Shown here in pieces: positions 12,222 to 39,808 of a stretch of 64,000 bases of DNA. Both the position numbers and the translations under genes were made by a program. Every line of letters starts with the position of its first letter. Position 1 is the stretch's first letter. The stretch lies in NCBI GenBank assembly GCA_000004985.1, contig GG738859.1; one strand, 5' to 3'. Source of the DNA: Naegleria gruberi (taxonomy: Eukaryota). Under the pieces are notes generated by a model. It saw only the letters and a program-made list of their open reading frames with translations. It searched no databases and had not been told where the DNA came from.

Positions 12222-12308
12222 CCGATGATAGCTCAGCTGGTAGAGCATGGGACTGTAGCAAGAAAAACTGTCATCCTGTGGTCGGCGGTTCGATTCCGTC
12301 TCATCGGA
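12222..12308 (+). tRNA. tRNA-Tyr (anticodon GTA) with a 14-nt intron
   Basis: The cloverleaf is read directly from the sequence. The acceptor stem is CCGATGA/TCATCGG, the D-arm is GCTCAGCTGGTAGAGC, the anticodon loop is CTGTAG|A with GTA at positions 34-36, and the T-arm is GGCGGTTCGATTCCGTC. The intron CAAGAAAAACTGTC at 12259..12272 sits at the canonical 37/38 position. The 5' half is nearly identical to human tRNA-Tyr (…TAGCTCAGCTGGTAGAGC…GACTGTAG). Confidence 0.85.
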
Positions 12309-23957: not shown

Positions 23958-26149
23958 TTATTGAAGAACATCCAACGTTACCTCCAAATCCTGTTCATGA
24001 GAGAAGAGCATTTGTTTTTGAGCAAGATTCATGTAAATTCCATTTGGAATTTTCATCAACTCTTCGTGTGTTCCCGTCTCTTTCAAAACTCCCTTTGCCA
24101 ACACACAAATCTTATCAGAATTTCTAACAGTGGATAATCTGTGAGCAATGCAAATGGTTGTTCTTCCCTTCATTAACAAATCCAAAGCAGCTTGAACGAG
24201 AGCTTCAGATTCAGTATCCAATGCAGAGGTAGCTTCATCCAATAAAAGAATCTTTGGATTTTGTAATAAGGCACGAGCAATACAGACACGTTGCTTTTGA
24301 CCACCTGAGAGTGAAACACCACGTTCACCCAATAATGTATTGTACCCTTCTGGAAGATCCATGATGAAACTGTGACAGTTGGCTGATTTGGCAGCTTCAA
24401 TAACTTGTTCCATTGATGTGTTTTCTTCACCAATTGCATATGCAATATTCTTGTAAATAGTAGTTGCAAACACTGTAAAATGTTAATTTCCTTAAATTCC
24501 AATATTATGAAACAACTTACAAATAGGTTCTATATGAAAATATTAGAAACAATTCGAAACAAAATTAGCAACACTTACCTTGTGTAACAATTCCAAGATT
24601 TCTATGTAACCACATTGGATCCAATTCAGCCAAATCAACTCCATCCAAGTAGACTTTACCACTTGCTGGTTCATAAAATCTTTCCAACAAACCTACAATG
24701 GTTGATTTACCAGAACCTGATGGACCAACCAAAGCAGCAGCTTCACCTGCCTTAATATCCAAACTGAAATTCTTCAATACAGTCACATTTGGACGTGATG
24801 GATAAATAAAATCAACATTTGCAAAGGTTACGTTTCCAATAATTTTTTCAAGTGTTTTACCTCCTTGGAATGGAATGGCTGCCTTTCTCTTTAAGATTTT
24901 CAAAACTGTCTTTTGAGAAACCATAGCTTTAGTATAATCTGGGAAGAAACCACCAGTTCCTGAAATACCCATAATGGCAAAGAGTGAGAGACCAAAGATT
25001 TTCATCATACTTCCAATATTCATCTTTGATTCAACAACTAAACCTCCACCAAACTATGTTACATTATTAGAAACTCAATAAGAAATTACTAATAACTACT
25101 TACCCAGAAAGCTAAAGCAGCAGTTCCCCACAAAATAGCTGTCAATAATCCAAACGTAGCTCCCAAAGAAAATGACTTTCCAATACCAGCCAAATACATC
25201 TTTCTAACATCTCTCTTATATCTTGATCTTTCCTTTTCTTCACCAGCCATTGATCTAACTGTTCTCATACATGATGTTACCTCAGTAGCAATTGCAGCAC
25301 TGTGATCATTGGCTTTGTTAATCTTCAAAGTGAGCTTTCTAATAATTCCTCCAAGAACAACAACACCCAATACCATGAGAGGAGTGGTAGAAATCATAAC
25401 AAGAGCCATTTCCCATCCAGTTGTCAAAGCCAAAACAACACCAACAATGAATTGTGTCATGTTTTGGAAGAGAGTTGCCAATTTGACTGTGTAAATTTCC
25501 TGAATTCTACTAATATCCTCAGATAGAGTAATGGTAAGACTTCCAACCTTCTTAATATCAAAGAAACCCATTTCTTGAGTGGTGAGTGAATCAAAATAGG
25601 CACCTCTCAAAGCTACACCAATTCTTTCACTTGCCCAATTCAAGAAGAATTGAGACATGAAATTGGCAATGGCAGAACCTGCAGCAATAATGGCAAATTG
25701 ACCTGCATAGGTTGAAATGAGAGATTTTTGCTCAGCGACAGTAATTGCAGTACCATCAGCTTTTGTTGGTGAAAAGACATTAACTAAATCACCCATAACA
25801 AATTGGAAACTGAATTAACATGAGTATAATAATAATGGACATTTTGAACAGTAAATTAACACATGCGTTCTGAATAAACTTACCTGATTGGAATAACACC
25901 ACTTCCCATAGCTCCAATTGTTCCCAATAGAATAATAATCCAATTAATACCAATAATCTTATAAATTGTGAATGCATCATGGAATTTCAAATCTGGTTCT
26001 CTAACATCATGAATTTGCTCATCTCCACCACTTTGAGCTTGTTGTTTCTGTTGGTCAGCATCCTTCTTCTTGAATGGATTTCTTGATTTTCTTTGAGTTT
26101 GATCAGCTTGATTAGATGAAATCTCAACCTCAATTTTATCTTGGGTCAT
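23958..26149 (-). CDS. ABCB: ABC transporter, ABCB-type half transporter (TMD-NBD), about 653 aa
   Basis: There are four exons: 26149..25884, 25809..25104, 25053..24579 and 24472..23958. The introns are 25810..25883 (74 nt), 25054..25103 (50 nt) and 24473..24578 (106 nt), all GTAAGT…YAG with consistent phases. The NBD has Walker [10 protein letters not shown], the Q-loop IVTQ|VFATT, the signature [15 protein letters not shown], Walker [13 protein letters not shown] and the H-loop CIAHRLST. A six-helix TMD lies upstream. Confidence 0.85.
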
Positions 26150-26229
26150 GTGTTTGATTCTGTTTTTTCTTGAAAATTGTATTGAGACAACAACATCTAT
26201 TGAATCTTGTGCTTAAAAAGATCAAGAAG

Positions 26230-26420
26230 AACGGCCAATTAAACAACGACTATTGCGAGAGTTCTTAGGACGCCAACAGCGAGAGCTATTGTAGCCCTGT
26301 TCATTTCATCTTGTAATTAGTTGAAACATGGTAGCAGATACGACTCGATTCCAATTACGTGCGGTATAGTGGAGGACTAGTGAGGGGTAAGACTAGTGCT
26401 GTCATGATGATAGAATGTAA
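26230..26420. other. GC-richer island of about 190 bp (roughly 45% GC against under 25% around it) upstream of the ABC gene; possible core promoter, 5' UTR element or small ncRNA
   Basis: The compositional break is visible directly. The island contains two GACTAGTG direct repeats 14 nt apart, the palindromes ACTAGT and TCCTAG, and an ATGATGA motif. I find no match to U1/U2/U4/U5/U6, 5S or SRP RNA consensus. Confidence 0.3.
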
Positions 26421-26591
26421 CCTTAAAGTAGTCCTAGATGTTGTTTGTTGAATGACTTTTTTAATTAAATAAAAAAATTTACAACGCAATATTTGTGCAT
26501 TTCTATTCTTTGTTCAAATTTCATGCTCTATGAAAATAAGCTTATTCGTAAAATGTTCTGTAAATAGAACACAATTTAAAATTAAAATAAA

Positions 26592-26885
26592 ATGAGAGTA
26601 TTTAAAGTTGATAGTCCATATGATGCTGATTTGAAAATTCTTCGTGTGATCAGTGATTATGATGCCGATTGTGCTGTAAAATGGGTTGATAGTATTTATG
26701 ATGATACAACCGAATTGTTGTGGTATCATGTTGGATCCCGTTTTGATGATGCTATTAAAATTTTTTATGTCGATAGTGCCTACGATTGTGATATTAAGAT
26801 CAAATTTGTTGATTCACTGTATGATGCTAGATGGTTTACCGAAGATAAGAAGAACCTTTTGAAGAATAATGCACCAACTTATTAA
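26592..26885 (+). CDS. Small 97-aa protein built from six tandem 13-residue repeats, consensus VDSxYDxDxKIxF; no recognisable family
   Basis: The sequence is MRVFK-VDSPYDADLKILR-VISDYDADCAVKW-VDSIYDDTTELLW-YHVGSRFDDAIKIFY-VDSAYDCDIKIKF-VDSLYDARWF-TEDKK…. The DNA repeats are about 39 nt long and have diverged at synonymous and codon-family level while the peptide motif is kept; for example Ser is encoded by both AGT and TCA and Tyr by both TAT and TAC. That pattern argues for selection on the protein. The ATG sits in an A-rich context. Confidence 0.45.
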   Translation: MRVFKVDSPYDADLKILRVISDYDADCAVKWVDSIYDDTTELLWYHVGSRFDDAIKIFYVDSAYDCDIKIKFVDSLYDARWFTEDKKNLLKNNAPTY

Positions 26886-26912
26886 ATAATTTTGTATTTT
26901 ACTCTCTTAGAT

Positions 26913-29090
26913 TTATTCTTTCAATTTGCCCTGTTTGAATTCAAGCAAAATATCCTTGACAGTAATGACACCATCCTTGTCGGCATCAATTCTGTCAATA
27001 ATTTCCTTTATCAATTCTTCTGATGGTTTTTCTTTCAAAACACTGAGAGCTTGTTTAAGTTCTTCAACTGTAATAACACCATCCTTATCCTTATCCAAAA
27101 GATTAAGAGAATCAGCAATAGATTGATCAACATAATCAATATCCTTTTCAATCTTTTCAATCAATTTACCAACTCTGTTACTAAGTCTACTAATCTTGAC
27201 AACAGGATCTTGTCCTTTAGTTTGGTCAACAATATCAATATGATCACTGATTAAATCTTCCAATTCTTCTCTTTCAGGTTCCACTGAACTTCTTGAAGCC
27301 AAAGTAGCAAGAATTTCATTAAGAATTCTAATCTTTTCTTCCTTAGCTTTCTTAACTTCTTCCTTTTCAAATTCAGGATCAAGAGCAACTTTTGGTGCTT
27401 CTGGAGCAGTTTCAACTGGAGTTTGTTTAGATTCAGTTGTTGTTGATGGAGTAGCTGGAGTTGAGCTTGTTAATTCTTCCTTCAAGACGAATTTCTTCTT
27501 TTCCTCTTCTTCAGTCTTAATTAACTTTTCGGTACGTTTCAGTGAAGCAAGTTTCTTTTCATAATCTTGAGTTGGAGAAGTTTGCATACCGACTTCATCG
27601 ACAACTTCATCTGAAAGAGAACCAAGAGCCATCTTGATAGCTTCCTCACTTTGTACCTTATCATTGAAAACAAAAGCACGAGATATAATAAGTAATGATG
27701 ATGGAATATTCTTATCAAATGATAATTCAATCCATTCTCTCAATTGTTTTTGAAGTTCCTTCTTTGATACTCCAATTTTCATACCTCTTTCCTTACAGGC
27801 ATACATAAGCTCTTCATTTGAAAGAGAGTTAACACCTTCCCAATAAATTAAACGATCATCAGCCTTCAATCTTCTCATCTTTGATCTCAATCTGTATCTA
27901 AGAATTGCATCAGATCCGTATGGCGTAATACCCATATATTTACACATAGCAACAAGTTGTGCTCTTGACATGTGATCCAAAGTAATTTCATCTTTGAAAA
28001 GTTTAGCAAATTTAACAATATCATCATTAGAACAACTTTCACCATTTCTAATCTTTTCAATAAAATTATTCAATTCCTCGGATTGAGCAGCTGTTTCAGT
28101 AGATTCACTGCTTCTCAAATCTTGTACCATCAATTCAACTGTATCTTGTAAGAATTTAGCAAGTTCAACTTTAGCTTTAACTTCTTTCAATAATTTTTCC
28201 TTCTTTTTTAATCCATCTTCAAATTGTGATGGAAGCATATTTGGGAAGAGTTTCAACAGAACTGGTAAAGCAAATTCCAAGAATGGTACAACAACAATAA
28301 TTGCAAAAGGTACGAGACGGAAAATATCTGAAACTGTTCTCAAAAGTTGATTTCTTTCTCTTCTTGATAATGCATTACCTCTCAAAACTTTTGTTGTTAA
28401 AGCAAATGCATATCGTACGTCACTTGCTAATAATTTACTTCCTGCAACATAGTGTTTAATTTCATGAACAGTAACATCCCTAGCTTTAGCATACCAATCC
28501 TTCACAACAGTAGGTCTCATTATAACACTCTTAAGAGCATCAAAAAGAAATACTGTAACTTTCCAAGTAACACCAGGAATAGCTTTAACTATTGAGAGTG
28601 ATTTGTCCTTTGCAATTTGAACAACACTATCGGCATTCATTGGTGTAAGAAGTGATTTTGCTGTTGATGAATTCTTCATTCTTTCCTCGATTTTTTTCTT
28701 TGCTTCAAGTATTCTTTGATTTTGATTATTATCATTATCGGAGGAAGGTGGGACATTATTTAAATTAATAATGTTTGTATGATAAGAAGCTATTTTGTTG
28801 CTCCACAAATTATTATTGTTAAGCAGAGAAGATCCAATATGAGAACTAAATATATTAATTAATAGAAGAAAATCAAATACCTACTTCGATATCGAAGAAA
28901 AGATAGGCTTTGAATTTATCAATCTTGACGAAGAAGAAAAATTTAGTCCAGAATTATTTTTCATCATCATATGACCACTACCAATGGTCATTGATAAGGC
29001 GGTATTGTGGTGATTTAAAACATTCGAACTGTGAGAAAGCAACTTTGATACTGTACAAAGAGCGTGTCGCGAAGTGAGAGTACTCTTCAT
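26913..29090 (-). CDS. LETM1: LETM1-family mitochondrial inner-membrane protein with C-terminal EF-hands
   Basis: Exon 1 is 29090..28885 and encodes a presequence-like MKSTLTSRHALCTVSK…SKPIFSSIS. The intron is 28846..28884, 39 nt, GTAGGT…TTTAG. Exon 2 is 28845..26913. The LETM1 core is …RLKADDRLIYWEGVNSLSNEELMYACKERGMKIGVSKKELQKQLREWIELS…. It has one TM helix and two EF-hand loops, DKDKDGVITVEEL and DADKDGVITVKDI. Confidence 0.8.
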
Positions 29091-31596: not shown

Positions 31597-31896
31597 GCAA
31601 AATATTGTACCAATAACACAGTAATCCAAATGTAAAAATTCATCAAATTTTGACAATGAGTAAAATGCACCACCAACAACAATAAATAAACCATATTTAA
31701 CCTTAAAAACATTAAAATTTCACCATTTCAATAACCAATTATGGAAAAGCTAAAGTATTCCTATATAATTTTGAGTTTATTGTAACTGTGTTTCATTTCT
31801 TCATAATAATATCAGTATTAATAGCTCAGTGTTGTGCCTTATGATTCTGGGTTTAAAATTTTTCGAAAAAGAAAAAAGAAAATAAAGTTTAAAAAA

Positions 31897-34179
31897 ATGA
31901 GCCATGATGACAATTCAAATGCTGTCGATACACAACAACAGAACGATCATCAAAATCTTCCAACCACAACAATAACAAACGACGAAAATAACAATTTTGA
32001 AAGTGTTACAACACTTAATAATAATAGTTTGGACTCGAATCAAAATTTTTCATATTCCGATAACACAAAATCCGATATTTTAGGTTTATTTGATGATGAT
32101 GATGATGAAGAGGATGATGATTATCAGGATTTGAACGAAGATGAAGATATAGAATTGGAAAATTTTGATTGGATCGATTGGGATGATATGATACTGCCTG
32201 ATGATGAGTTTGATGGTAGTTCTAGTCAAGCTAAACGAGGAAGGAAGAAATATCAAAAGTTTGAAAAACCATCAGTTTTACCTAGTATACGACCCAAAAG
32301 TCCAACAAAGCAGACAACAGCTAGCTCAAACTCTGTAAATATGTTAAACAATGTACAAATACCATCACAACCTTACCAATTTCCATTTCCACAGATTATG
32401 GCACCTCAATTATTTCCACAAAGTGGTGCAACTAAGAATTTCAACCAATTTCCAATAGTTCCTTCTACGATATTTCCAACATATGACCTGATGTTCTCTA
32501 GAGGAGTTAATTTGCCAAATGCATCAACAAGTAGTAATGTTGTGGCATCTTCATCTAATGCATCTGTTCCAACTCAATCAAGCCCATCAAGTCCTCCTTC
32601 TTCCTCTAATAATTCAATATCCAGTATATTCTCATCCCAAAGTGTAATATCAGATGAGCAAATGAAGGAATTGCAATATCAAATTCAAACACATACTCAA
32701 TTACTGTTTTATAACTATTTCCTATCAAGTTTTAATCAAGAATTAAAGGAATTGAACAAGAAATTCAAAAATCTCATCACTTCCTATTTAGTTATCAAGA
32801 AAGAGGCTGTAAATAACAAAATGAGAAAATTATTATATTTATTTAATGTTTCTAAAGACGTTAAAATTGTAAATTTATTAGATGGATCAAAGAAGGTTAC
32901 TCTAACCGAAAATTCATTCACTCCAAACGAAAGAAACGAAGAAAGAAATGTTGAAGAATGGATTGAACTGCTTACTACCTCAATACTGGATGTGGAAGGA
33001 ATTGATTCAATGGATATATTTATTGATTTTGACTATTCTTTCTTTTATATCAACAATCAAATTAATTGGGAATTATTTGTAAAATTTTTAAAACCTTTCA
33101 AGTTATTTTCAAATCAAAGCTTGTTAGCAGAAATACAGGAGAGTATTTACTACTTGAATACAACTGCAGAAAGAGGAATAGGATCTAAAAGAATGGTTTT
33201 TACAATACCTGAGGATAATTTACTCTTGATTGGCCTTAAAAAACATTGGAAACCTGGAACAACAATTAAGTGGGAAAGAATCAGAGATGAGTTCGTTCCA
33301 AACAAGTCATCGAAACAACTAAGAGTCAGATATAAAAATATGATAGGGAAAAGAGCAGCATCTCTAGAGTTTAATCCTTTCAAAACGTTCAGAACTATTG
33401 CAGAAGAAACAAACCAACAACATGAAGGTAGTGGTAGTACCAAAAAGAAAGATGATAGTCAAGTAGATTATTCATATTTATTCGAGTCAATCAAACTTTT
33501 TAAAATAACAAGCAAATTAACAAGGAAAGAGATTCCAGTAAGTTACAAAGACCTAAGCAAAATACACACCTATGTACCTAGAGATAATATTTCTGAATCA
33601 GAGTCAGATTTGGACCAAACAAAAGATACAGGCGAAAAGAAGAGAAAGAAGAATGAAAAAATCAATCCAAAGAAAAAGAAGAAACAAGATACAGAGGATA
33701 TAACATCCCTTGAAAATAATTTATTAACCACAGAAAAGATAGACCAAATAGTAGCAGTTCAACCACAAGTAGAAATTCCACCTATTATTGAAAATCCAAT
33801 AATTGAACAACCAATTAATCCATTGAATGAAAGTAGTCTCAGTGAAGTATTTTTGAAGCCTGATTTGGAGTTATCCACTTCAAAGATACTACCATTCGAA
33901 GATGTTGGATCGATTGACTCATCTTCTGATGAAGAAGATAATGTACATCATGTAGAAAAGGATTCTGAGATTATTCATGATGGAATAGTACACAAATTTA
34001 CATATGAGGACGATAGGCATATTTTGGTTACTCTTCAAACTAAGGGTCTTCAAATTGGAACGTTGATTGTTGGTGATGAATTTGATAGTGTTTTACTTGA
34101 TATTGCTAAGGAATTGAGTAGATCAAAACAAGTTATCAAAGCAAGATACAATAAGATTATCTCAATTAATAAGAAATAA
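31897..34179 (+). CDS. N/S-rich nuclear protein with a Myb/SANT-like domain
   Basis: The ORF is counted from its first ATG, which is in frame with the ORF-track start at 31834. It has an acidic DDDDDEEDDD tract and a SANT-like block FTIPEDNLLLIGLKKHWKPGTTIKWERIRDEFVPNKSSKQLRVRYKNM. Its stop is 13 bp from the stop of the convergent ULK4 gene. Confidence 0.55.
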   Translation: MSHDDNSNAVDTQQQNDHQNLPTTTITNDENNNFESVTTLNNNSLDSNQNFSYSDNTKSDILGLFDDDDDEEDDDYQDLNEDEDIELENFDWIDWDDMILPDDEFDGSSSQAKRGRKKYQKFEKPSVLPSIRPKSPTKQTTASSNSVNMLNNVQIPSQPYQFPFPQIMAPQLFPQSGATKNFNQFPIVPSTIFPTYDLMFSRGVNLPNASTSSNVVASSSNASVPTQSSPSSPPSSSNNSISSIFSSQSVISDEQMKELQYQIQTHTQLLFYNYFLSSFNQELKELNKKFKNLITSYLVIKKEAVNNKMRKLLYLFNVSKDVKIVNLLDGSKKVTLTENSFTPNERNEERNVEEWIELLTTSILDVEGIDSMDIFIDFDYSFFYINNQINWELFVKFLKPFKLFSNQSLLAEIQESIYYLNTTAERGIGSKRMVFTIPEDNLLLIGLKKHWKPGTTIKWERIRDEFVPNKSSKQLRVRYKNMIGKRAASLEFNPFKTFRTIAEETNQQHEGSGSTKKKDDSQVDYSYLFESIKLFKITSKLTRKEIPVSYKDLSKIHTYVPRDNISESESDLDQTKDTGEKKRKKNEKINPKKKKKQDTEDITSLENNLLTTEKIDQIVAVQPQVEIPPIIENPIIEQPINPLNESSLSEVFLKPDLELSTSKILPFEDVGSIDSSSDEEDNVHHVEKDSEIIHDGIVHKFTYEDDRHILVTLQTKGLQIGTLIVGDEFDSVLLDIAKELSRSKQVIKARYNKIISINKK

Positions 34180-34192
34180 ATTGATAAATATT

Positions 34193-37100
34193 TTATTCAG
34201 CTAATAACTTTTTGATTGATGTTGCAAGAGTAAGTAGTGATTGATTTCCAATATCTGAGACTTTGTTGACTGCAACCATCAACATGTCTTCTCGTTTCAG
34301 TTTTGCTATCATCTTGGAATTACTTTGGCAAATAATTAGCAAAATGTTAAGCATATAATTACAAATTCTAGTCACACTCTCATCAATTTCATTAGTTTCC
34401 TCGAATGAATTTACATGATTGAGAAGAATTTTACGGATGAGTCCCAAAACTTGTTGTGAAAATAATTGTTCATGAGTTGAGGAATATTGTTGAGCCAATA
34501 GGAGAACAACATGACATGCTGACTCAGCTATGGTTAAATCTTCATGAGAACAGAGTTTCATGAAAACTTGAAGGTTGTCAACCAATGCTTCATTGTTTTG
34601 AACCAATGTTTCAGCTGCTTGTTTAGAGTCATCTCCCTTATTCTTTGAAGAATGAACAAGTTTTGCTGCCTTATATAAAAGATTGTCGACTATACCTAAA
34701 CAAGGTTCAAAGAAAGTATCTACACCATTTTCAAAGGCGTACTTCAAAACAGCACTCAATTTTGTGATTATACCAAGCTTGAAGAGTTGATCTGAAGTCA
34801 AAACTTCTGCATTTACAACCTTCAAAATCAATCTAACATTGTGTACGTTGTTATTTCTATGTTCTAACTCGAAGAATTCAAACAGCTTTGGAATTATATT
34901 AAAGTGGTGAATAACACCAATGAAGCCTGGGTTGTGTTCAGCAATGTTATTCAATAACTTTAATCCATACAATGGAATAGGGTCTTGATCATCCAGTATT
35001 TGTTTGTACTTTGGCAAAACATTCTTTACGATGAAATCATTAATTTGTTTTGTACACTCGTGGTTAGGATCTTCAATACTATAAACATTCTTATCATTCA
35101 AGAATTGAACAAGAATATCAGTGAAAATCTTCAAACACAAGAATCTCACATCACCATTAGAATTATTGAGCATATCTACTAATGATGGTAACAAAGAATT
35201 AACAACAACTTTGTGGAAGGAAGCAGTGGTTGGCTGTCTTGAAAGGGCTTCAATAACCAAAAGTATAGAGTTGGAAGATTCTTCAGTACCTGACTTGGAT
35301 CCTAATTGAGTCAAAAGTTTTGATAGTTGGAGCAAAACGTTCTCTGTTATCATCTTTTCGCTCAGGGAAGGGGTAGTCATTACGAGCAAAACAAATTCAA
35401 GAGTCTTGTTTTGATTTGCTGCAGATGTTGATGTCATACCCTTATCAAGTTGTTGGGAGACTTGTTGAAGAAGGGTTGGAATCATTTCAGCAATACTATC
35501 AAGAACTCCAGCCATACATGTCTTGACATATTGTTCCTTCTCTTTGTTCATCATTCTATCCAAGCAAGCACATAGCTTTGGACCGAAATTCTTCACGATA
35601 AATGTTGGATTGCTCTTTGAGATGATGAAATATGTAATAAGAGCCTTAGCTCTGATTGTATAATTAGAGTGATCAACTAAAGAGGATAAGCTTTCTTCAA
35701 ATGCTGGATCTTCTATTAATTGTTTGCATTGCTTAGTGTTGCTATCAGTCAAAATTGCAAGATTAATAATATTGACTGCAGATTGTTGAACTCTAATATT
35801 ACTGTCCTTTAAAAGAGCAGCAATTTTCTTTGGCGTTATTAAATCAATAAGTTGTGAAGAAAGATTGGACTTATTTCTTGACATTCTAGAAAGTGATGAG
35901 ATAGCACTTCCTCTCAAGAATTCATTCTTACTGGTATTGAAAATTTGGAGAAGGGAAGAGATACAATCAATTGTGGCAAACTTTTGAGAGTATTGAGGAC
36001 TTTGGGCAGCAATATTTTCAATTGTTTTTGTGGCATAATGTTGAACAACTTCATCAGCATACTTAAGACTTTCAACAACTGTACTAACAATTGATACAGG
36101 TAAATCAACAAGGGTGATTTCCTTTTGATTTTGGGAAGGAATCTGTGTAGCAACATAGAACACCAATTCTCCTAAGCAGGCCAGTGCTCTTCTCTTTACC
36201 TTTACACCATTGTCCTTCATGACAAGTTCTACAAAGACGTCGAATATTTCATTATTAAGGAGATCTCCGGAAATGTATGTTGCATGTCTTACCAAAAGAC
36301 CAGTAACAGAACATAATCTAACTCTGAGCATTGGAGACTTGTAAGCTCTTAGCATTTTAATGAACAACTTCATCAAGGAGCTGTTAACAAGCAAGTTAGA
36401 TGATTGGGTATCTGTGCAAAGTGTTTCAAAATAGCACAAACAATTCAATTTCATAGTATTGTCTCCATTTCCTCCAAGAGCTTTGTAAATTTGAGTAAGG
36501 AATCCTTCCAGCTCTTTTTGAGGCATGTTTAAAACCTTCTTGAGAGGATGAGGTTCAAAAGGAAGTTTAGTTTTGTCGAACTTTGGACTAGTAACTTTTT
36601 CAATTCTGGAGTTCATGATAATTGGTTTGACATAGGTGTCGGATTGGTTGAACATTAATTTTTGAACTTCTTGGATGGAAAGTTTGATGTTAGCGATATT
36701 TGATTGGGAGGTAGATCTTCTGATCATTGGTTCTCCAGTTGGTTCCTTAGAACTATTTCCTCTTGTTTCTGAGGAATCACTAAAACCTTGTTCTTCGTCA
36801 TCTAACTCTGCCTTCTCTTTAGAAAGTTCATCACCACTATCTCCATCGGATTCATCGAAATTATATTCAATATCTGTGACTTTCTTAGTGGATGGTTTTT
36901 CTGAAGATCTTCCATCATAACTAGGACCCAACTCTTTTTCAAGATTGGATTGGACAATCTTTGAAAGTCTCATTACATTCTCGCTTTTTGAGGTTTTTTG
37001 GGAAGAAACAACCTTAACACTATTCAGATAAACAGGAGAAGGAGCTAAATATTTTCTTAATTCTTCTGGAGGTGGTGCTGCCTTTTCTCTCCAAAATTTG

Positions 37101-37973
37101 TGATCTCTTAGGTCATCCCATGAAATTCTATCTGTTGGATGTTTTTGTAATAATGATCTAATAAGAGAATTCAATTCTTCACTACAATTTTCCAAAGGCT
37201 TCAATTCCGAGTTCAAAATTAATTCCATAGTTTGTTCAGGTGTCGATCCAACATAAGGAGGTTGTCCAGAAGCCATCTCATAAAGAATACATCCAAGAGA
37301 CCAAAAATCCGAGTAAATTGAATGGATTCCTCCCATCAATAATTCTGGAGCTGTGTAACAAAGAGTTCCTCTTTTAAGTTTACCATCATTTACAGTTTTA
37401 TCAGTCGATGGTGTTGATGTAGCTAAACTTTGATCAATGTCCTTCATTAATTTAGATAATCCAAAACCACTTAATTTTAAAATACCACAACCATCAATAA
37501 GGATGTTTGAAGGTTTTAAATCACAATAAACTACACCTCTTGAATGAACATATCTACAACTCGTTAAACTATCCGCTTCATATAAATTTACTTACTGAAG
37601 GCCACTGATGATATCCAAAGCAAAAAGATGAATTGTATCTTCGGGAAGTTTATGATCTTGACTTAAAACTGTCATTAAATCTCCAGTACAAAATTCTACA
37701 ATAATCCAATAATGATTCGTTGTTTCATACCAACTATAAAATTTTAATACATTTGTATGAGAAAGCATATTCAAAACTTTTGCCTTAAATTTGTTATTGT
37801 TTTAAATAAAATTATTGTATGATGGCGGAACGTACCTCTGTAAACACCTTTTGTTTATGGTGTTTCTCTATACATTTTACAGCAGCATATTCTATAGTTT
37901 TTCTTTTTCTACCTTTATAAACTACAGAACTGCTACCCTTTCCAATCTCTTCGTAGATTTGAAAGTTATCCAT
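34193..37973 (-). CDS. ULK4: ULK4-like Ser/Thr (pseudo)kinase with C-terminal HEAT/ARM repeats, about 1228 aa
   Basis: There are three exons: 37973..37836, 37783..37596 and 37553..34193. The introns are 37784..37835 (GTACGT…TTTAAG, 52 nt) and 37554..37595 (GTAAGT…TTGTAG, 42 nt). [34 protein letters not shown] matches human ULK4 [80 protein letters not shown] matches [75 protein letters not shown] matches [28 protein letters not shown]. DFG is replaced by GFG and HRD by YCD. Confidence 0.85.
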
Positions 37974-38065
37974 TTTTTTTTAAACCTAATTTTTGCGCCA
38001 AAATCGTAACAAGTCAAAACATCAAGTTTGAATCTTTTGCATTTGATATACAATGATAATATATA

Positions 38066-39808
38066 TTAGTCTGTTGTTGTTGGTTTATTAGTAGCCTTTT
38101 CTCTTAAAATTTGATTGACTAAAGATGGTGATGCATTACCCTTCGAAAGTTTAATCACTTGTGCAACTAAAAATTGGAATACATTTTCCTTACCATTTCT
38201 AAGGTTTCCAACTTCTGTTGGATGTTCAGCGATAATCTTATCACATAACTCTCCAATAACATTCTTGTCTGTTATTTGTCTCCAACCATTCTTTTCTGCA
38301 ATATCCAGTGCCATCTCTCCACTCTTTTCATCAAACATTATCTTGATAATCTTCTTTGCCATTTTACCAGAGATATCTTCATGTTGAATAGCTTCAACAA
38401 TCGATCCAATTTGAATATATGATACAGGACTATCACTTAGTGTGATTTCAGATGCATTGAGTAAACCCATAAGCTCACTAGCAATCCAGTTAGCAACAAG
38501 TTTTGGATTCAATTTAGATGACCATCTAGAATCATGCAAAATTGTCTCAAAGAATTCAACTCCTCCATTATTGGTCAATAAAATATTGGCATCATAGAAA
38601 TTCAAATTGTATGGTTCACTTGTCAACTTTTCGACAATATCATCAGGAAGAGATGGAATAGTAGTTTTAACAGATTCAACATAATCTTCAGTAAGTTCTA
38701 CATATGGCAAATCTGGATCTGGGAAGAACTTGTAGTCTGGAATATTTTCCTTACTTCTTAAAAGTAAAGTTTCTCCCTTTTTGGCATCAAATGTTCTGGT
38801 TTGTTGTTCAATTTTTTGTCCATTTGTCAATAATTCGATATGTCTCTTGATTTCAAAATCAATAGCACGAGGAATATTGTTAGCACTGGAAATATTCTTG
38901 ACTTCACATCTAGTACCACTTAGTGGGTGATCACCAGCTGATGCATTGTATACTGATACGTTAACATCACATCTCAAACTACCTTCTTCCATATTACCAT
39001 CACATGTTCCAATATGTCTCAACATGAATTGAAGTTTTTTAACAAATAATTCAGCCTCCAAACTTGAATTCAAATCTGGATAGGTAATAATTTCCATCAA
39101 TGGATTACCAGCTCTATTTAAATCAATTAAGGTATTATCCAAATCATGAACAGATTTACCAGAATCTTGTTCAACTTGAATACGAGCAATTCTAATATAC
39201 TTTGGTTTATATGTACCATCTCCTTGTGGAATGTCAATTCTCAATTTACCTTCAGAAACTAGAGGATAAAATTGTTGAGTAATTTGATATCCAAGTGGAA
39301 GATCAGGATAAAAGTAATGTTTTCTGTCGAATTGAGAGTATAAATTAATTTTTCCTCCAACAGCTAATCCAGTCTTAACTGCTTGTCTGATACAGTATTC
39401 GTTCAATGAAGGTAAAGTACCAGGAAAAGAAGCATCAAACAAAGTGACATTTACGTTTGGCATGGAGTTTGTAAACTCTGTTGAACTTGTTGAAAAGAGT
39501 TTGCTCTTAGATTTAATTTGAGCGTGAATTTCCAATCCAATAACAGGTTTATATCCTTTTAAAACACTTTCATCTCCACTTGTGTGTAAATACTTCTTGT
39601 TTGTGTGCATTTCATGTTCTCTTCTTCTCTTTTCCTTGATAGTTTCCGTAACATGAACAGTTTTATGATATTGTCTTGAATTTAGTGATGAAATATTATT
39701 AAATAAAATAGAAGATTGTTTTGGTAGACATGTTTGCACACATTTCGATGATGATGACTTGACAGAGTTTCGGGATGAGTATTTAATGCCTTTGATAATT
39801 GCTCGCAT
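38066..39808 (-). CDS. GATB: Glutamyl-tRNA(Gln) amidotransferase subunit B, mitochondrial (GatB/PET112)
   Basis: This is a single 580-aa ORF with an R/S-rich N-terminal presequence. The GatB catalytic core is KPVIGLEIHAQIKSKSKLFS…. The C-terminal GatB/YqeY domain is …NLRNGKENVFQFLVAQVIKLSKGNASPSLVNQIL. Its ATG is only 48 bp downstream of the CLEC16A stop on the same strand. Confidence 0.85.
   Translation of the reverse strand: MRAIIKGIKYSSRNSVKSSSSKCVQTCLPKQSSILFNNISSLNSRQYHKTVHVTETIKEKRRREHEMHTNKKYLHTSGDESVLKGYKPVIGLEIHAQIKSKSKLFSTSSTEFTNSMPNVNVTLFDASFPGTLPSLNEYCIRQAVKTGLAVGGKINLYSQFDRKHYFYPDLPLGYQITQQFYPLVSEGKLRIDIPQGDGTYKPKYIRIARIQVEQDSGKSVHDLDNTLIDLNRAGNPLMEIITYPDLNSSLEAELFVKKLQFMLRHIGTCDGNMEEGSLRCDVNVSVYNASAGDHPLSGTRCEVKNISSANNIPRAIDFEIKRHIELLTNGQKIEQQTRTFDAKKGETLLLRSKENIPDYKFFPDPDLPYVELTEDYVESVKTTIPSLPDDIVEKLTSEPYNLNFYDANILLTNNGGVEFFETILHDSRWSSKLNPKLVANWIASELMGLLNASEITLSDSPVSYIQIGSIVEAIQHEDISGKMAKKIIKIMFDEKSGEMALDIAEKNGWRQITDKNVIGELCDKIIAEHPTEVGNLRNGKENVFQFLVAQVIKLSKGNASPSLVNQILREKATNKPTTTD

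Follow-up and report, generated by a model that had tools for sequence, protein, structure and literature searches.

In the 64,000-nucleotide stretch of Naegleria gruberi DNA analysed here (the window; contig GG738859.1), which is eukaryotic and Naegleria-like (Heterolobosea), a + strand ORF running from an ATG at 26592 to a TAA at 26883-26885 encodes a 97-residue eukaryotic member of the known protein family PF19647 (DUF6150), whose short name in the newer Pfam release is 'Septknot'. Taken as a whole, the observations are best explained, with good confidence, by a functional single-exon Naegleria-like gene for a stand-alone Septknot/DUF6150 domain, with the structure, evolution and function proposed below. 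The ORF bounds and the 97-residue protein given by the sequence-only reading that preceded this work agree with the ORF map, and its placement of the gene between the 5' end of an ABC transporter gene and the 3' end of a LETM1 gene is correct by ORF map and Pfam. The gene, its parts and its surroundings are as follows.

24565-26149, - strand: ABCB-type transporter, upstream (ORF pieces 24565-25023, 25089-25796 and 25880-26149)
26150..26591, no strand: intergenic region of 442 bp, AT-rich, with the ORF head-to-head to the ABC transporter (ORF map)
26592..26885, + strand: Septknot CDS, complete and intronless (97 aa and stop), a stand-alone Septknot/DUF6150 domain (ORF list, Pfam PF19647)
26607..26645, + strand: repeat 1, VDSPYDADLKILR, turn motif and predicted strand 2 (periodicity, model, repeat comparison)
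26646..26684, + strand: repeat 2, VISDYDADCAVKW (periodicity, model, repeat comparison)
26685..26729, + strand: repeat 3, VDSIYDDTTELLW plus YH, with an individualised longer loop to Trp44, closing the first half of the 3+3 arrangement
26730..26768, + strand: repeat 4, VGSRFDDAIKIFY (periodicity, model, repeat comparison)
26769..26807, + strand: repeat 5, VDSAYDCDIKIKF, with Cys66 in place of a conserved Ala (family alignment)
26808..26846, + strand: repeat 6, VDSLYDARWFTED, with an individualised last turn to a near-invariant Trp81 (family alignment, repeat comparison)
26841..26870, + strand: predicted C-terminal helix, residues 84-93, EDKKNLLKNN (DSSP on the AlphaFold2 model, alignments)
26886..26912, no strand: spacer of 27 nt between the convergent Septknot and LETM1 stops (ORF map)
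26913..28808, - strand: LETM1 (LETM1_RBD and EF-hands), downstream neighbour, with its stop at 26913 (Pfam)

The window protein matches PF19647 with an E-value of 1.6e-21 and 76.5 bits (gathering cut-off 27), and the match covers the whole domain, from residue 2 to residue 90 on profile positions 10-98 of 98; the same profile also matches 6/6 eukaryotic orthologues (best 1.1e-26). The members of this family are small and come mostly from Bacteroidota. The sequence-only reading had recognised no described domain, which was wrong because PF19647 already describes it at full length, and the protein is thus not a new kind of domain. Other resources added nothing to this assignment: NCBIfam gave only a chance match (Trm5b, 12.7 bits versus a cut-off of 500), phmmer of the window protein against PDB sequences gave nothing meaningful, PADLOC and PHROGs returned no match, whether queried with the window protein or with two bacterial homologues, and neither a scan of metagenome contigs with the window protein as query nor a literature search on DUF6150 gave a match.

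A word-indexed homologue search found one relative only, and an exhaustive HMMER search (phmmer) was needed for the rest. In a library of 1.84 billion cluster representatives, which takes in MMETSP/EukProt data, this search returned 125 relatives at E<=1e-3, with alignments covering residues 2-90. Three of the 125 (P0127, P0133 and P0188) were discarded as false positives; these are low-complexity proteins with long, unrelated tandem repeats that reach E-values of 1e-13 to 1e-5 through many short stretches, and homologue counts for repeat proteins therefore need inspection. Most relatives are 110-140 aa long and carry an N-terminal signal peptide ahead of the same six repeats, while a separate bacterial clade of about 90 aa is cytosolic (without signal peptide) and ends in ...H.L..RL. 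When one genome per prokaryotic species was scanned, 232 species matched, and the best 80 of the 232 were all Bacteroidota (Bacteroidales, Flavobacteriales, Saprospiraceae/Aureispira, Cytophagales and Chitinophagaceae). The nearest non-eukaryotic relatives of the window protein are also Bacteroidota, at 42-50% identity. No NCBI or UniRef Naegleria protein was among the homologue matches, and the gene appears to be missing from the reference Naegleria protein sets; the analysis shows that this small ORF deserves a gene call in the genome annotation.

Some family members depart from the stand-alone form. P0148 (217 aa) consists of two complete Septknot domains in tandem, P0240 (296 aa) carries the domain behind a secreted N-terminal region, P0246 (192 aa) is extended at its C-terminus, and in P0184 a cytidylate-kinase-like N-terminus runs into Septknot, which may be a gene-calling artefact. 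The 80 best Bacteroidota loci (L011-L090) hold 91 Septknot ORFs, so that some genomes have two copies less than 3 kb apart.

The window protein is acidic (pI 4.55, 11.5 kDa, 17 Asp) and is built from six repeat units that start at residues 6, 19, 32, 47, 60 and 73 (nucleotides 26607, 26646, 26685, 26730, 26769 and 26808), at spacings of 13, 13, 15, 13 and 13 residues. Six tandem 13-residue units had been described from the letters; the number of units stands, and two extra residues between units 3 and 4, Y45 and H46, had been left out. The protein contains the motif S-x-[YFW]-D six times, versus a maximum of four in 100,000 shuffles of its residues, and the BLOSUM62 autocorrelation at lag 13 has a z of 7.3, reached by 0 of 20,000 shuffles. 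The autocorrelation has a second strong peak at lag 41 (13+13+15), and the six units are therefore arranged 3+3, as two triplets.

At the DNA level, Tandem Repeats Finder reported no tandem repeat in the ORF, and the mean pairwise identity between the six units is 49% in nucleotides and 40% in amino acids. The repeats are therefore old and diverged, which bears out the earlier description of diverged 39-nt units. The codon examples given for them were also correct (Ser by AGT, TCA and TCC; Tyr by TAT and TAC; Val by GTT, GTC and GTG). From such synonymous switches between repeats the sequence-only reading had deduced purifying selection. The argument is weak alone, because the nucleotide identity of the units is not below their amino acid identity, but the selection itself is supported by the comparison of orthologues presented below.

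In the 93-sequence family alignment W44 is invariant, and conservation reaches at least 90% at A12, A25, D26, D67 and W81, all present in the window protein. Its repeats 3 and 6 match repeats 3 and 6 of the homologues best, and the six-repeat plan is ancestral to the entire Septknot family. The segment that had been taken for a short basic tail is conserved as W-x-x-E/S-x-K-K-x-L-L and predicted to form an alpha-helix at residues 84-93. The protein has two cysteines, C27 and C66; the latter takes the place of an Ala that is at least 90% conserved in the family and that the other eukaryotic orthologues keep.

At least seven further sequences of heterolobosean type contain an orthologue: L003 (a 39.6-kb contig from a JGI metagenome, rich in eukaryotic genes), L004, L010, L093 and L094 (Logan assemblies), L007 (NCBI GCA_006365035.1) and Percolomonas cosmopolitus, where a transcript (MMETSP0759 / EukProt EP00818) carries a complete Septknot ORF with its start at the same position. 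Once their GT-AG introns (36-51 nt) are removed, all orthologues with a reconstructable full CDS have the six repeats in frame. L003, L004, L007 and L094 have in common a phase-1 intron that follows the Tyr codon of repeat 5 and is absent from the window gene, L010 and L093; the remaining introns are lineage-specific. In L093 (2358-2823) an intron lies inside repeat 4, the repeat-5 intron is missing and the fifth turn is a degenerate QFDSEF.

Repeat number is thus kept at six in every complete orthologue, and the length differences between orthologues are confined to loops and are multiples of three, so that the array is free of frame-disrupting indels. Protein identity between orthologues is 38-64%, about as high as for LETM1 (~50% identical between the same loci). 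In pairwise comparisons synonymous sites are saturated, with pS at 0.64-0.93, while pN is 0.29-0.44, and dN/dS, far from 1, is about 0.26 for the least diverged pair and about 0.26 or lower overall. A further contig from another strain (L001), 99.05% identical over 5.3 kb, encodes an identical Septknot protein; it differs from the window at no position of the Septknot CDS and by indels and SNPs upstream, at 26278-26538. Within this spacer the two strains are set apart by an indel of 15 bp, by SNPs clustered at 26292-26311 and by short indels at 26528-26538.

These comparisons indicate that Septknot truly encodes a protein and is subject to purifying selection. A chance ORF, or a neutral minisatellite that merely looks coding and yields no functional protein, could be suspected for a frame of only 97 codons in an AT-rich genome; however, this explanation is effectively refuted, and we give it next to no weight. 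It is opposed by the significant Pfam and phmmer matches, by the retention of frame, length and all six repeats to saturated synonymous divergence, by the Percolomonas transcript, by the lack of a DNA-level tandem repeat and by the unchanged CDS of two strains with indels in the spacer upstream. The sequence-only reading, which had preferred a coding gene to a neutral minisatellite, was right in this, and transcription is documented at the level of an orthologue.

The genes around Septknot are eukaryotic by Pfam (SART-1, ULK4, a chromodomain protein, LETM1 and a kinetochore Ybp2-like protein), and the GatB of the window has 81% identity to the Naegleria lovaniensis protein and 70% identity to the one from Willaertia magna. 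The order GatB-ULK4-Myb (window 31834-39808) is kept in N. lovaniensis (L091, PYSW02000026.1), where the annotation splits the ULK4 homologue into two genes and fuses the Myb gene to a peptidase S8 model. A tRNA is detected by Rfam at 12222-12308 on the + strand (54.8 bits), and ARAGORN with default settings reports none in the window; its length of 87 nt suggests an intron-containing eukaryotic tRNA. Upstream of Septknot, the same ABC transporter ORF pieces are called on the strain contig L001; the gaps between them (~65 and ~83 nt) are presumably short introns, and the intergenic region that separates the transporter from Septknot is presumed to be a bidirectional promoter region.

Contamination by Bacteroidota DNA, or an assembly chimera within a eukaryotic contig, would fit the fact that the nearest non-eukaryotic relatives are Bacteroidota at 42-50% identity. 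Nevertheless, eukaryotic genes lie within tens to hundreds of bases of the ORF, and the same arrangement recurs in the independent strain contig of 99% identity as well as in four further organisms. The orthologues carry spliceosomal introns, and the window CDS has host-like composition (GC 0.327 and GC3 0.245, matching neighbouring genes) and host-like codons (61% host-preferred codons versus 59% in neighbouring genes). In addition, an N-terminal extension, hydrophobic segment or signal peptide was looked for in the window protein and is absent, as the protein begins at its first strand, and no targeting signal was seen. We therefore regard contamination as having a negligible probability, and treat Septknot as a resident gene of the eukaryotic contig.

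LETM1 is tail-to-tail with Septknot in five of the six loci in which the downstream gene is visible (window, L003, L004, L007 and L010), the exception being L093, where LETM1 is not adjacent and the convergent downstream neighbour has no Pfam match; the upstream neighbour varies, from the ABC transporter in the window to Snf7 in L003. The stop-to-stop spacers measure 27 nt in the window, 70 nt in L003 (10440-10509), 13 nt in L007 (707-719) and 66 nt in L010 (404-469). With only 13-70 nt between convergent stops, the 3' UTRs must overlap or abut, and overlapping 3' ends may make a breakpoint between the two genes costly, which is the simplest reading of the synteny and could account for its long persistence. 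A functional link between Septknot and LETM1 is possible but unsupported. Among the 80 Bacteroidota loci no conserved operon partner emerged either; the most frequent neighbours were a methyltransferase (17/80), RimM (12/80) and S16 (9/80), and all three were rejected as operon partners since these counts reflect lineage synteny.

The structure of the protein was predicted with AlphaFold2 from the 93-sequence alignment (pLDDT 88, pTM 0.75). DSSP assigns strands to residues 2-5, 14-18, 27-32, 43-46, 55-60 and 68-73 of the model and a helix to residues 84-93, so that the repeated V-D-S-x-Y-D-A-D segments are predicted to be tight inter-strand turns and the whole chain to be one compact, closed, six-stranded barrel-like fold with a short C-terminal helix as a cap. 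Foldseek against the PDB matched only the entries of one protein, Q9PR55 (8IWA, 8IWB, 8IWC, 8JRM and 8W68), with a probability of about 1.0, TM-scores of 0.46-0.58 and a modest E-value of 0.015; the other matches had probabilities of at most 0.05 and no solenoid was among them. A small beta-hairpin or solenoid had been suggested from the letters, and AlphaFold was expected to return a confident solenoid. The repeats are indeed predicted to be beta-strands and turns, and the model is confident, but what it describes is a closed six-stranded fold.

Q9PR55 (UU089.1) is an 89-residue Ureaplasma protein whose 7_1 knot, earlier predicted (PMC9278004), has been established by crystallography and NMR (PMC10840475). 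It has S-F-P-D in every loop, read by its authors as 'linchpins' that fix the register (PMC10840475), and its core, which we recovered from an alignment, is made of units of about 11 residues (...VVNSFPDLKVQFVTSFPDYKV...). Family profiles built from 93 and from 16 members did not find Q9PR55 in PDB sequences at E<=1 or E<=10, and its core fragment gave no match to PF19647 and an hhalign probability of 1.5%; as there is no detectable sequence relationship, the link between the two proteins is structural only. The weak matches to ExbD and Fab entries in the PDB were dismissed as chance matches of alternating strand patterns. From the structural match to Q9PR55 and the Pfam name Septknot, we infer that the window chain is tied in the same deep 7_1 torus knot. 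AlphaFold can mis-predict topology (PMC10672856), and with six repeats and a C-terminal helix, one winding more or fewer than in Q9PR55 might give a knot other than 7_1.

The model also bears on the alternative that the ORF encodes an undescribed repeat domain, either a beta-hairpin solenoid or a cation-binding repeat, as the sequence-only reading had it. The 13-residue period and the Asp-rich Y-D-x-D turns of this acidic protein, with 17 Asp and a pI of 4.55, could coordinate cations, and an EF-hand cation exchanger, LETM1, adjoins the gene in five lineages. However, the domain is already described (PF19647, E=1.6e-21), and its model is a closed six-stranded fold resembling Q9PR55 rather than a solenoid. 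The invariant positions are the turn Ala and Asp residues and the two Trp, the S-x-x-D spacing is common to the structural SFPD turns of Q9PR55 (PMC10840475), no known repeat family (e.g. RTX, pentapeptide or Ca-binding) matched in Pfam at E<=10, and the adjacency to LETM1 is gone in L093. We consider this alternative unlikely, and the shared S-x-x-D spacing points instead, by analogy, to a structural, turn-forming role of the repeated motif in a Septknot domain.

Where the gene came from was approached with a neighbour-joining tree. In this unrooted tree the six complete eukaryotic sequences are monophyletic in 142 of 200 bootstraps, and their clade stands beside signal-peptide-bearing sequences of Bacteroidota type. 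A signal-peptide-like extension is present in 76 of the 91 Bacteroidota ORFs, and the alignment column of the window Met1 holds Gln preceded by A/S/G in 57 of 92 homologues. Since a type-I signal-peptidase site with Gln at +1 marks exported Bacteroidota proteins (PMC10653852), the eukaryotic Met coincides exactly with the bacterial mature N-terminus, and the eukaryotic protein corresponds to the mature bacterial protein with Met instead of Gln1. Moreover, the C-terminal W..[ES].KK.LL helix is found in the eukaryotic and the secreted Bacteroidota clade and not in the cytosolic bacterial clade.

The eukaryotic clade, the Met/Gln1 site and the shared helix, together with the larger bacterial diversity, favour a bacterial origin. 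We infer the direction of transfer and the single origin from a repeat-protein alignment that offers 90 columns and gives 71% bootstrap, and think it rather probable that the gene entered once, long ago, from a Bacteroidota-like donor into the ancestor of Naegleria and Percolomonas (Tetramitia), with subsequent loss of secretion, amelioration and intron gain. A donor of Bacteroidota type would have passed the gene to the ancestor of the tetramitian Heterolobosea; the Sec signal peptide would then have been lost, with an initiator Met in place of the mature Gln, which would make the eukaryotic product cytosolic; and spliceosomal introns would have been gained in several lineages while the composition became fully ameliorated. 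Neither a viral structure library nor an IMG/VR scan gave relatives, and a viral vector for the transfer is therefore unsupported.

An ancestrally eukaryotic family, inherited vertically in Discoba, or a transfer from eukaryotes to bacteria, would also yield a monophyletic deep clade (from Naegleria to Percolomonas) with introns and conserved synteny, and the tree is weak and unrooted. Against it, bacterial diversity is vastly larger, with 232 species genomes and a cytosolic ~90-aa clade, while the eukaryotic matches in the 1.84-billion-protein library are only of heterolobosean type. Likewise, the coincidence of the eukaryotic start with the bacterial signal-peptidase site, and a C-terminal W..SKK.LL that is common to the secreted Bacteroidota clade and missing from the cytosolic one, are at odds with a eukaryotic source. 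An origin within eukaryotes is thus improbable, and transfer from a Bacteroidota-like donor remains our preferred reading.

Bringing the model and the alignments together, we propose that the six 13-residue strand-plus-turn units, in their 3+3 arrangement, would fold into one compact six-stranded structure in which W44 and W81 each close one half. The S-x-x-D/aromatic turn would mainly keep the strands in register and the knot in place, the role suggested for the SFPD of Q9PR55, and the knotted protein would be unusually resistant to chemical and mechanical unfolding. The residues conserved throughout the family occupy turn and core positions only, which argues against an enzyme. The product may tentatively be seen as a non-enzymatic, hyperstable protein that binds a partner or an ion through its crown of acidic and aromatic turns, or that resists an unfoldase or protease, a suggestion to which we attach limited confidence. 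A bolder proposal would make these protists the first eukaryotes known to have a 7_1-knotted protein. It would have been domesticated from a secreted Bacteroidota protein into a cytosolic one and would have stayed tail-to-tail with LETM1, their 3' ends overlapping, for a very long time because it is coupled to LETM1 in mitochondrial cation homeostasis, for example through an acidic crown binding Ca2+/K+; this is speculative and seems to us quite doubtful.

The Septknot/Q9PR55 fold class is already well known to knot specialists, since the most complex knot verified in a protein so far belongs to it. A conserved, intron-bearing clade of probably cytosolic members in genetically tractable amoeboflagellates would offer a second cellular context in which to look for the purpose of the knot, and a natural experiment on the handling of a deep torus knot by eukaryotic chaperones and proteasomes. 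It would also be a clean case of bacterial-to-protist domestication, with loss of the signal peptide at its cleavage site, intron gain and amelioration.

Set beside the systems already described, the window protein is closest to the bacterial members of PF19647, with which it shares six strand-turn repeats with a Y-x-A-D turn, individualised repeats 3 and 6 with an invariant Trp, and the W..KK.LL C-terminal helix. It differs from them in its eukaryotic host, in the lack of a Sec signal peptide and in the Met that replaces the mature N-terminal Gln, as well as in the spliceosomal introns of its orthologues; and it departs from the family consensus in having Cys for the near-invariant Ala66. With Q9PR55 it has in common the Ser-x-x-Asp spacing with an adjacent aromatic residue. 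However, the repeats of Q9PR55 are shorter (about 11 residues with S-F-P-D, versus 13 with S-x-Y-D-A-D), and the turns of the window protein read S-x-[YF]-D followed by A/D-D, with the aromatic residue shifted by one position and no rule of a Pro; Q9PR55 has a disordered N-terminus, while the window protein has a predicted C-terminal helix. A third protein, P73136 of Synechocystis, is a homologue of Q9PR55 predicted by AlphaFold to be 5_1-knotted (Brems et al. 2022, PMC9278004). Its chain makes one winding fewer than that of Q9PR55, which illustrates that in this fold class the number of windings, and hence of repeats, sets the type of the torus knot.
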